UHGV virus genome: UHGV-0133741 | Length of the DNA: 64,000 nt | Reading direction: 5' to 3' (one strand) | Source: a virus | Part shown: positions 47,802 through 48,224 of the stretch, one piece after another | Layout of the letters: every line of letters starts with the position of its first letter | Position numbering within the stretch: the stretch's first letter is position 1 | Notes under the pieces: model-generated | Database searches by the model: none | Told to the model about the DNA's origin: nothing | What the model saw: only the letters and a program-made list of their open reading frames with translations | Made by a program: the position numbers and the translations under genes

Positions 47802-47927
47802 ATGAGCGCATTGGTTCTTGAGTATCTTCTTGTAGCAAAAAGGTCACCATCGCAGCGGTGGTTCACATACCGTTATCTCTGGATGCGCACTTATGGTTGC
47901 GCAGACAATCAGAAACTGAAGACATAG
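47802..47927 (+). CDS. PapI-like truncated ORF
   Basis: GGAG RBS; 41 aa MSALVLEYLLVAKRSPSQRWFTYRYLW... resembling N- and C-terminal pieces of PapI/PefI without the middle; divergent from the PapB-like gene. Confidence 0.3.
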   Translation: MSALVLEYLLVAKRSPSQRWFTYRYLWMRTYGCADNQKLKT

Positions 47928-47930
47928 CAG

Positions 47931-48224
47931 TTGTATACCGCATCATGCATCAGAACAGGCTGCTACTTGAGCATAAAACAATCGAGGCGGACGCATACAG
48001 GGAAAGTGGCTGTTGGAGAAAGTAACCAGCGATGGCACTCTGACGGATTCGAGTTCAGCTGTAATAAAGGTGAAAAACTGCGGGGTGCATTCGCGCTGGA
48101 TTGTTGCGCTCGCGAAGCTCTGTACAGAGCACTCAGTATTGGTAGACAAGCGGCAATTCACCTTTTCGTGAGAGGTGCAGTCAGTCATAGCTTTTGCCTT
48201 CCACCTTTTCCACGCCGTATCTAA
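47931..48224 (+). mobile_element. IS2-like (IS3 family) transposase fragment
   Basis: SNQRWHSDGFEFSCNKGEKLRGAFALDCCAREAL matches remembered IS2 OrfB; upstream part readable only in another frame, downstream diverges; no intact IS. Confidence 0.55.

Follow-up and report, generated by a model that had tools for sequence, protein, structure and literature searches.

The closest described relatives of the locus analysed here are fimbrial operons with paired PapI- and PapB-family regulators. In the papI-papB system of E. coli P fimbriae, which works through an epigenetic Dam/Lrp/PapI switch, the GATC boxes are about 102 bp apart and inverted. In the Salmonella pef cluster (pefBACD, pefI and the DsbA paralogue srgA), the PapI homologue pefI is located downstream, and in the K88 fae cluster an IS1 lies between faeA and faeB. 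PapI is an activator of pap, its homologue PefI is a repressor of pef, and phase variation of Pix fimbriae proceeds without a PapI-type protein (PMC12388093). In phage P1, the annotation places darB on the minus strand at 10469-17236, with the portal gene prt diverging from it.

We analysed a 64,000-nucleotide stretch of the virus genome UHGV-0133741 (the window) and within it the interval 47802-48224 (423 bases). With a probability of roughly 85%, this interval is a three-part pseudogene scar at the point where the fimbrial cargo block of a P1-like phage-plasmid has its right-hand edge. Comparison with P1, with IS elements and with related fimbrial loci fixes the identity, order and orientation of the pieces and shows that faeA is truncated and frameshifted, that the IS lacks its ends, that darB has been replaced and that deletion at short repeats has continued. 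The interval likely encodes no working protein.

By alignment with P1, the window is a P1-like phage-plasmid with darB swapped for a Pef-type fimbrial block. Positions 39264-39973 (lxc and ulx) correspond to P1 9752-10461 and positions 48174-49000 to P1 17095-17924, both at 97% identity; lxc, ulx, the 5' end of darB, the darB-prt intergenic region and prt are 90-97% identical to P1 and lie in P1 order. In contrast, P1 10462-17094 gives way to the fimbrial block in the window, and from these limits of homology we conclude that darB, except for its first ~142 nt, has been replaced by foreign DNA. A rearrangement junction had been proposed here in the initial annotation, and it is indeed present, between the 8.2-kb fimbrial block and the P1 backbone that resumes at 48174 (P1 17095). 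On the far side of lxc, 38089-39225 on the plus strand encodes a protein of 378 aa in which a RelA_SpoT domain scores 47 bits; the gene adjoins lxc where P1 has res/mod and looks like a CapRel-type defence gene. Close relatives have a 435-aa SIR2_2 protein in its place, so this site appears to be a variable defence hotspot.

The block carries a complete-looking operon of the chaperone-usher type on the minus strand, with genes for a PapB-like regulator, a PefA-like major subunit, an usher, a chaperone, a minor subunit, a DsbA-like protein and a 315-aa putative adhesin. Among the NCBIfam models, PefC/AfrB gives the usher 1102.7 bits (cut-off 752) and the Pef-type chaperone model gives the chaperone 369.6 bits (cut-off 248); the major subunit reaches 153.7 bits against the PefA model, under its cut-off of 227, and Pfam DSBA and PapB domains are present in the block. 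With an usher and its cognate chaperone both above curated cut-offs, the operon is by profile assignment of the Pef/Afr type. It shares with Salmonella pef the usher, the chaperone, a PapB-like first gene and a DsbA-like gene within the cluster. It differs from pef in that the PapI homologue of its fimbrial family is upstream and divergent, and in the window this gene is destroyed.

Two identical GATC boxes (ACGATCTTTT; repeat family D7) lie upstream of the operon at 47343-47352 and 47468-47477, in direct orientation and 125 bp apart, in contrast to the closer, inverted boxes of pap. Both boxes and the intergenic region that holds them are kept in a relative of the locus on an E. coli chromosome (L026), and an Rfam scan of 47100-48450 gave no matches. 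The PapB-like gene may alternatively start at a TTG upstream, at 47274; in E. coli this very protein carries a PapB/FocB-family annotation, and it is recorded on 146 contigs. The arrangement resembles papI-papB in that a PapB-family gene is separated by ~560 bp from a PapI-family start on the opposite strand, with an AT-rich intergenic region carrying two ACGATC-type GATC boxes (PMC12388093). Two components of a Pap-type switch are therefore in place, a PapB regulator and two GATC boxes upstream of the fimbrial promoter; of the third, a cognate PapI-family co-regulator encoded with the operon, there is a stub only. The window differs from papI-papB in that its PapI-family gene is cut to ~70 frameshifted nt and its structural genes are of Pef type and not of Pap type.

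The stub forms the start of a 41-aa ORF, which the initial annotation had read as the two ends of a PapI/PefI regulator with the middle missing. The ORF is there and its ribosome-binding site is good, with GGAG 4 nt upstream of the ATG. The PapI reading is correct for the first ~70 nt. Positions 46941-47870 are colinear with the chromosomal locus L026 (727/964 identities, 75%), and this alignment spans papB, the whole intergenic region, the ribosome-binding site, the ATG and 70 nt of an intact 76-aa FaeA gene (PF04703). The ATG of the stub coincides in alignment with the ATGs of intact faeA in L026 and in a second locus, L042, whose 72-aa intact homologue aligns to 47749-47867. The ORF starts 563 bp from papB, compared to 586 bp for the 76-aa faeA in L026, and the stub has a local DNA score of 44 where shuffled sequences give 14.4 ± 2.1 (0 of 2000 shuffles reach 44). 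Position and a start beside an orthologous papB thus agree with faeA orthology, for nucleotides 1-70 only.

The second end of the supposed regulator is a product of a frameshift. Compared with intact faeA, the reading frame of the stub is shifted by a net –1 near codons 9-12; with the frame corrected, the stub reads MSALVLEYLLV.KKVTIAAVVHI against MRVLILEYLSQNKKATTAEVADI in L026. In the frame that is actually open, the homologous KKVTIAAVVHI is changed into KRSPSQRWFTY, which by chance imitates the C-terminal motif of PapI, RSPLRRG..TYW (QRSPLRRGMATYW in PapI), and this explains the impression of two ends without a middle. Since the PapI-derived part is the N-terminal ~23 codons only, no such internally deleted gene is present, and from about residue 21 to its last residue, 41, the ORF is encoded by out-of-frame IS DNA.

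At the protein level, the 41-aa ORF shows no resemblance to the family. A Pfam search of the ORF gave no match of any kind even at E ≤ 10. Against a custom PapI/FaeA profile, built from nine annotated family members that were recovered by tblastn and translated, and run with filters off, the ORF scored 0.1 bit and ranked 197th among the six-frame segments of the window. The same profile found no PapI/FaeA-like coding segment anywhere in the 64-kb window; the best E value was 0.34, elsewhere. The family motifs YQARYYL and R(S/T)P.RRG..T.W are absent from the ORF, which accordingly lacks all the marks of a FaeA/PapI (PF04703) protein (~60-85 aa, a profile match and both motifs), and its sequence is a single unnamed entry in the protein collection. 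A check by PapI alignment therefore fails for the protein (Pfam and the custom profile) and succeeds for the DNA of the 5' part against orthologous loci. Two other accounts were tried and rejected: that the ORF has no relation to PapI at all, as protein searches alone had indicated, which the DNA comparison with the orthologous locus overturns for the 5' part, and that the whole ORF is frameshifted IS, which fails as there is no ISEc36 similarity above shuffles upstream of 47864. By this comparison, the stub is a faeA gene fragment and not a functional family member.

The 41-aa ORF could instead be a functional mini-regulator, either an in-frame-deleted PapI derivative or a new small protein. 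It has a good ribosome-binding site and a conserved upstream region, so transcription and translation of a 41-aa peptide are possible, and the ORF is intact in 10 of 10 close relatives. However, these relatives have only two variable sites within it, too few to show selection, and a second P1-borne lineage encodes another product, of 30 aa, at the same place. As the ORF leaves the faeA frame after about codon 10, takes residues 21-41 from out-of-frame IS DNA and matches neither the profile, Pfam nor the family motifs, we regard a regulatory role as very improbable. The 41-aa ORF and the 97-aa ORF that follows should be annotated as pseudogene fragments, not as genes.

The second piece of the scar is an IS relic. 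The initial annotation had recognized a stretch resembling IS2 OrfB (QRWHSDGFEF...ALDCCAREAL), and this peptide was rightly identified: blastn of the fragment against complete E. coli genomes found annotated ISEc36/ISEc27 copies at E 7e-55, and tblastn with ISEc36 OrfB matched residues 77-108 and 111-~168 in two frames at a combined E of 3e-29. The stretch is also long enough to score in a pairwise blastn, with 235/311 identities to ISEc36 (E 2e-62) and gaps of 1, 1, 4, 15 and 11 nt. These correspond to five indels in the fragment (–1, –1, +4, –15 and –11). The DNA match extends back to OrfB residue ~66, so that the fragment covers OrfB residues ~66-168, including the NQRW-SDGFEF region, with its coding spread over three frames. 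The Pfam rve domain scores 20.3 bits, under its cut-off of 32.6.

Like ISEc36, ISEc27 and IS2, the window has mid-orfB with its NQRW.SDGFEF motif; unlike them, it lacks orfA, the frameshift site, the C-terminal two-thirds of rve and the inverted repeats. No ISEc36 similarity above shuffled controls was found outside 47864-48146, and the fragment is therefore an internal IS piece. Descent from an IS2-group element is clear from its sequence; a complete DDE (rve) domain, orfA with a programmed –1 frameshift, terminal inverted repeats and a target-site duplication are all missing. No closer parent IS was found in PLSDB or in complete E. coli genomes, the best PLSDB matches being ~76-79% identical. 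K88-type fimbrial regulatory regions disrupted by an IS are comparable in that an IS is tied to a PapI/PapB-type pair in a plasmid-borne operon; they differ in that truncation affects the PapI-type gene itself in the window, where no more than an internal piece of the IS is left.

The joints between the pieces are short and blurred. The IS fragment does not follow the 41-aa ORF, as the initial annotation had it, but begins at 47864 inside the ORF, 64 nt before its end. faeA homology stops at 47870, and the shared CACATAC partly fits both parents, so the faeA/IS breakpoint is within 47864-47871. Over 47864-47900 there are two about equally good alignments to the IS, and breakpoints are blurred by ~25% divergence. 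At the other end of the fragment, extension of IS homology into 48147-48173 was not significant. Next to this junction sequence is the darB stub, with a 43-aa ORF (48181-48312) whose stop codon adjoins the junction; the stub reads MNKLSIGGGCSSVSETLKYIRAITSHRAPIRYGVEKVEGKSYD and then a stop, compared to MNKLSMGVFRCSSVSEILKYIRAITSHRAPIKYGVEKVEGKSYDRL... in P1 DarB. Because the darB stub lies on the minus strand from 48174, the last 17 codons of the 97-aa ORF (48174-48224) are antisense to darB. Within the stub, a C run at 48285-48293 varies in length and sequence among the window, a second P1-borne lineage and P1 (AAACACCCCC in P1). prt starts at 48388, and a promoter-like site lies on the minus strand at 48394..48365. 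Table 1 gives the coordinates of all features.

Table 1. Features of the fimbrial block and its boundaries (window coordinates).
Feature	Position	Strand	Description
Foreign block	39974-48173	operon on minus	8.2 kb (8,200 bp); P1 homology (97%) stops at 39973 and resumes at 48174
ISEc52-like (IS3-family) 5' end	39993-40150	minus	IS terminus and transposase start; truncated towards P1 ulx
IS1414-like (IS256-family) 5' end	40140-40293	minus	78% nt identity; first 66 nt of transposase gene and upstream end; truncated towards P1 ulx
PapB/PefB-family regulator gene	46951-47238	minus	95 aa from ATG; Pfam PapB 94.2 bits, E 5e-27
Fimbrial regulatory intergenic region	47239-47801	none	AT-rich; two GATC boxes
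faeA/PapI-family 5' stub	47802-47870	plus	codons 1 to ~23, native ribosome-binding site, net –1 frameshift; pseudogene
41-aa ORF	47802-47927	plus	chimera of faeA stub, frameshifted stub, then out-of-frame IS
IS2-group (IS3-family) orfB internal fragment	47864-48146	plus	283 bp, ~76% nt identity to ISEc36/ISEc27
Junction sequence	48147-48173	none	~27 nt matching neither IS nor darB; P1-like bases may start at ~48166
P1 darB 5' end	48174-48312	minus	139 nt, ~46 codons; 90-97% identical to P1 17095-17236
darB-prt intergenic region	48313-48387	none	P1 annotated late promoter LPpro (plus); predicted PdarB (minus, reaches into prt start)

Relatives of the locus were drawn from draft and metagenome assemblies through exact-protein look-ups. 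An identical PapB protein is present in 309 index blocks of the assembly collection, and the same prt, scar and fimbrial layout was found in all 10 of the places shown, on P1-like contigs 75-97 kb long and on one 590-kb contig. The latter (L011, GCA_051995675.1) could reflect integration, cointegrate formation or misassembly. A megablast search of PLSDB and the INPHARED phages with 47300-48400 and a blastn search of complete E. coli genomes with 46900-48250 recovered no copy of the block; they matched only the P1 part, IS sequence and distant papB. The ten loci with identical PapB, which we call lineage 1, are 97-100% identical to the window over 47239-48400, and half of them have an 11-nt deletion in the IS fragment (48016-48026). 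In five near-identical relatives (L006, L008, L009, L012 and L014, at ~3970-5110) an IS605-type TnpB gene (376 aa), absent from the window, lies between pro and prt; in these prt is called at 573 aa, not 569 aa.

A protein search with PapB recovered relatives that are 62-96% identical. Among them, lineage 2 (L030-L034 and L040-L041, including plasmid CP030784.2) is P1-borne at the same darB site, with PapB 89-91% identical to that of the window and named E. albertii by the sources. It has the same overall layout, and its intergenic region matches that of the window at ~70% identity. In lineage 2, there is no equivalent of ~47863-48036, a 174-bp deletion between 8-10-bp repeats. The deletion joint is in a shared GCGGTGGT, part of the repeat that reads CAGCGGTGGT in the faeA stub (47853-47862) and CAGCGATGGC in the IS fragment (48027-48036); ISEc36 shows CAGCGGTGGT at the place corresponding to the IS-side repeat. 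Where the window has the 41-aa ORF, lineage 2 has the different 30-aa ORF, and it keeps 44 nt more of darB (to P1 17051). Each lineage has lost what the other kept, which points to a common ancestor in which the stub was present and both the IS fragment and the darB remnant were longer, and to independent erosion of the two lineages afterwards. Divergence between the lineages is 26-30% in the IS fragment and the intergenic region, compared to 8-9% in the darB stub and prt. This discordance does not fit a simple history of one acquisition followed by vertical descent, and suggests a later allelic exchange of the fimbrial block.

The initial annotation had also held that a divergent PapI-like regulator is decayed. 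This agrees with what remains of it in the window and with the relatives outside P1, all of which, among those examined, have an intact FaeA gene 520-600 bp upstream of papB, in four independent contexts. Intact FaeA lies beside PapB on four contigs around an 82% PapB homologue, including an E. coli chromosome (76 aa, divergent), on an E. coli chromosome with a 73% homologue and on three metagenome contigs with an 81% homologue; for a K88-like cluster, one of three contigs shown has a FaeA call. In the Pef-type relatives, the next gene is PAPS-reductase-like where a further gene is called. A scan of GTDB representatives with PapB found two distant loci only (58-61%), in Edwardsiella piscicida and Salmonella diarizonae, and by eye no PapI-like gene was seen among the ORFs upstream of papB in either, which made these two uninformative. 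The intact loci outside P1 show that in the ancestral fimbrial island the papB-like gene was paired with a divergent gene of the FaeA/PapI family. A look for an intact papI-like gene or IS in related phage-plasmids gives a split answer, with faeA intact in the relatives outside P1 and, among the P1-like relatives found, neither an intact faeA nor a complete IS at this site.

The left edge of the block also carries IS sequence. An ISEc52-like fragment, 75-78% identical in nucleotides to annotated ISEc52/IS3-family copies, interrupts an IS1414-like one that stops 30 bp from the stop codon of the last fimbrial gene, and the left P1 joint (39973/39974) adjoins internal IS sequence. With IS fragments at both boundaries and directly adjoining P1, and with IS66 and IS3-family debris also flanking the chromosomal relatives, arrival of the block by an IS, as the initial annotation suggested, is plausible. 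The block could have been delivered by IS-bounded transposition or a cointegrate, or by homologous recombination between IS copies in P1 and the donor, and the fragments would then be eroded remains. However, the boundary groups differ, with an IS2-group fragment on the right and an ISEc52-like one nested in an IS1414-like one on the left, and the P1 side is a 6.6-kb replacement, not a simple insertion. The hallmarks of a composite transposon, the same IS twice with intact ends and a target-site duplication, are replaced here by different, truncated IS types. As internal IS sequence lies at both joints, with no inverted repeats or target-site duplication and with different IS types, the joints are those of deletion or illegitimate recombination and not of transposition, and we consider delivery by an IS somewhat doubtful.

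Alternatively, the IS sequence may be incidental, the truncation of faeA and the IS relic predating the move and the block having joined darB by illegitimate recombination unrelated to any IS. At ~24% divergence from any IS of PLSDB or of complete E. coli genomes, the IS fragment is old, and it is ~26% diverged between the P1-borne lineages compared to 8-9% in flanking P1 DNA; short sequence matches are found at the joints. Yet no non-P1 relative with the stub or the IS fragment was recovered, and faeA is intact in all of them. This order of events is a real contender that falls a little short of even odds.

For the three-part scar itself, we propose that an IS2-like element would have been in or beside faeA in the donor, and that deletions or illegitimate joins at short matches may have removed the rest of faeA, both IS ends and ~6.6 kb of darB. 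Decay would have carried on afterwards, as in the 11-nt indel and the lineage-2 deletion. Among the relatives found, no P1-like intermediate has intact faeA or a complete IS at the site, and therefore we infer the order of these events.

The replacement would leave the plasmid without the anti-restriction protein DarB. With no cognate PapI-type co-regulator in cis, any Dam/Lrp switch of the operon would run without one or use a host homologue. The initial annotation had expected loss of the regulator to alter phase-variation control. Such an effect may exist, and its sign is uncertain given that PapI activates pap, PefI represses pef and Pix fimbriae phase-vary without a PapI-type protein. The operon is in the darB transcription unit, in the same orientation and downstream of the retained predicted PdarB; given this position and the lost PapI-type gene, a rewiring of fimbrial expression is conceivable though unlikely. 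Expression would then be driven or biased by read-through from a prophage promoter, or would depend on PapI homologues from the fimbrial loci of the host, so that each lysogenised host would switch the mobile adhesin operon in turn.

Literature searches gave no description of fimbrial cargo in P1-like phage-plasmids, and a large 2025 phage-plasmid survey mentions neither fimbriae nor darB. Another example is an IncY-typed plasmid from avian E. coli (L035, NZ_CP127299.1, 50160-51100), which has phage tail genes, phd/doc and a fimbrial cluster of another kind, whose FaeA/PapI and PapB pair is intact; the lineage of the window is therefore not alone in having a phage-plasmid with fimbrial genes. 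More noteworthy than the scar is this common lineage of P1-like phage-plasmids in which a Pef-type fimbrial operon replaces darB. [quoted passage not shown] Taken together, these data predict that the phage would have a DarB-minus phenotype and that phase control of the fimbriae would be PapI-independent or host-dependent.
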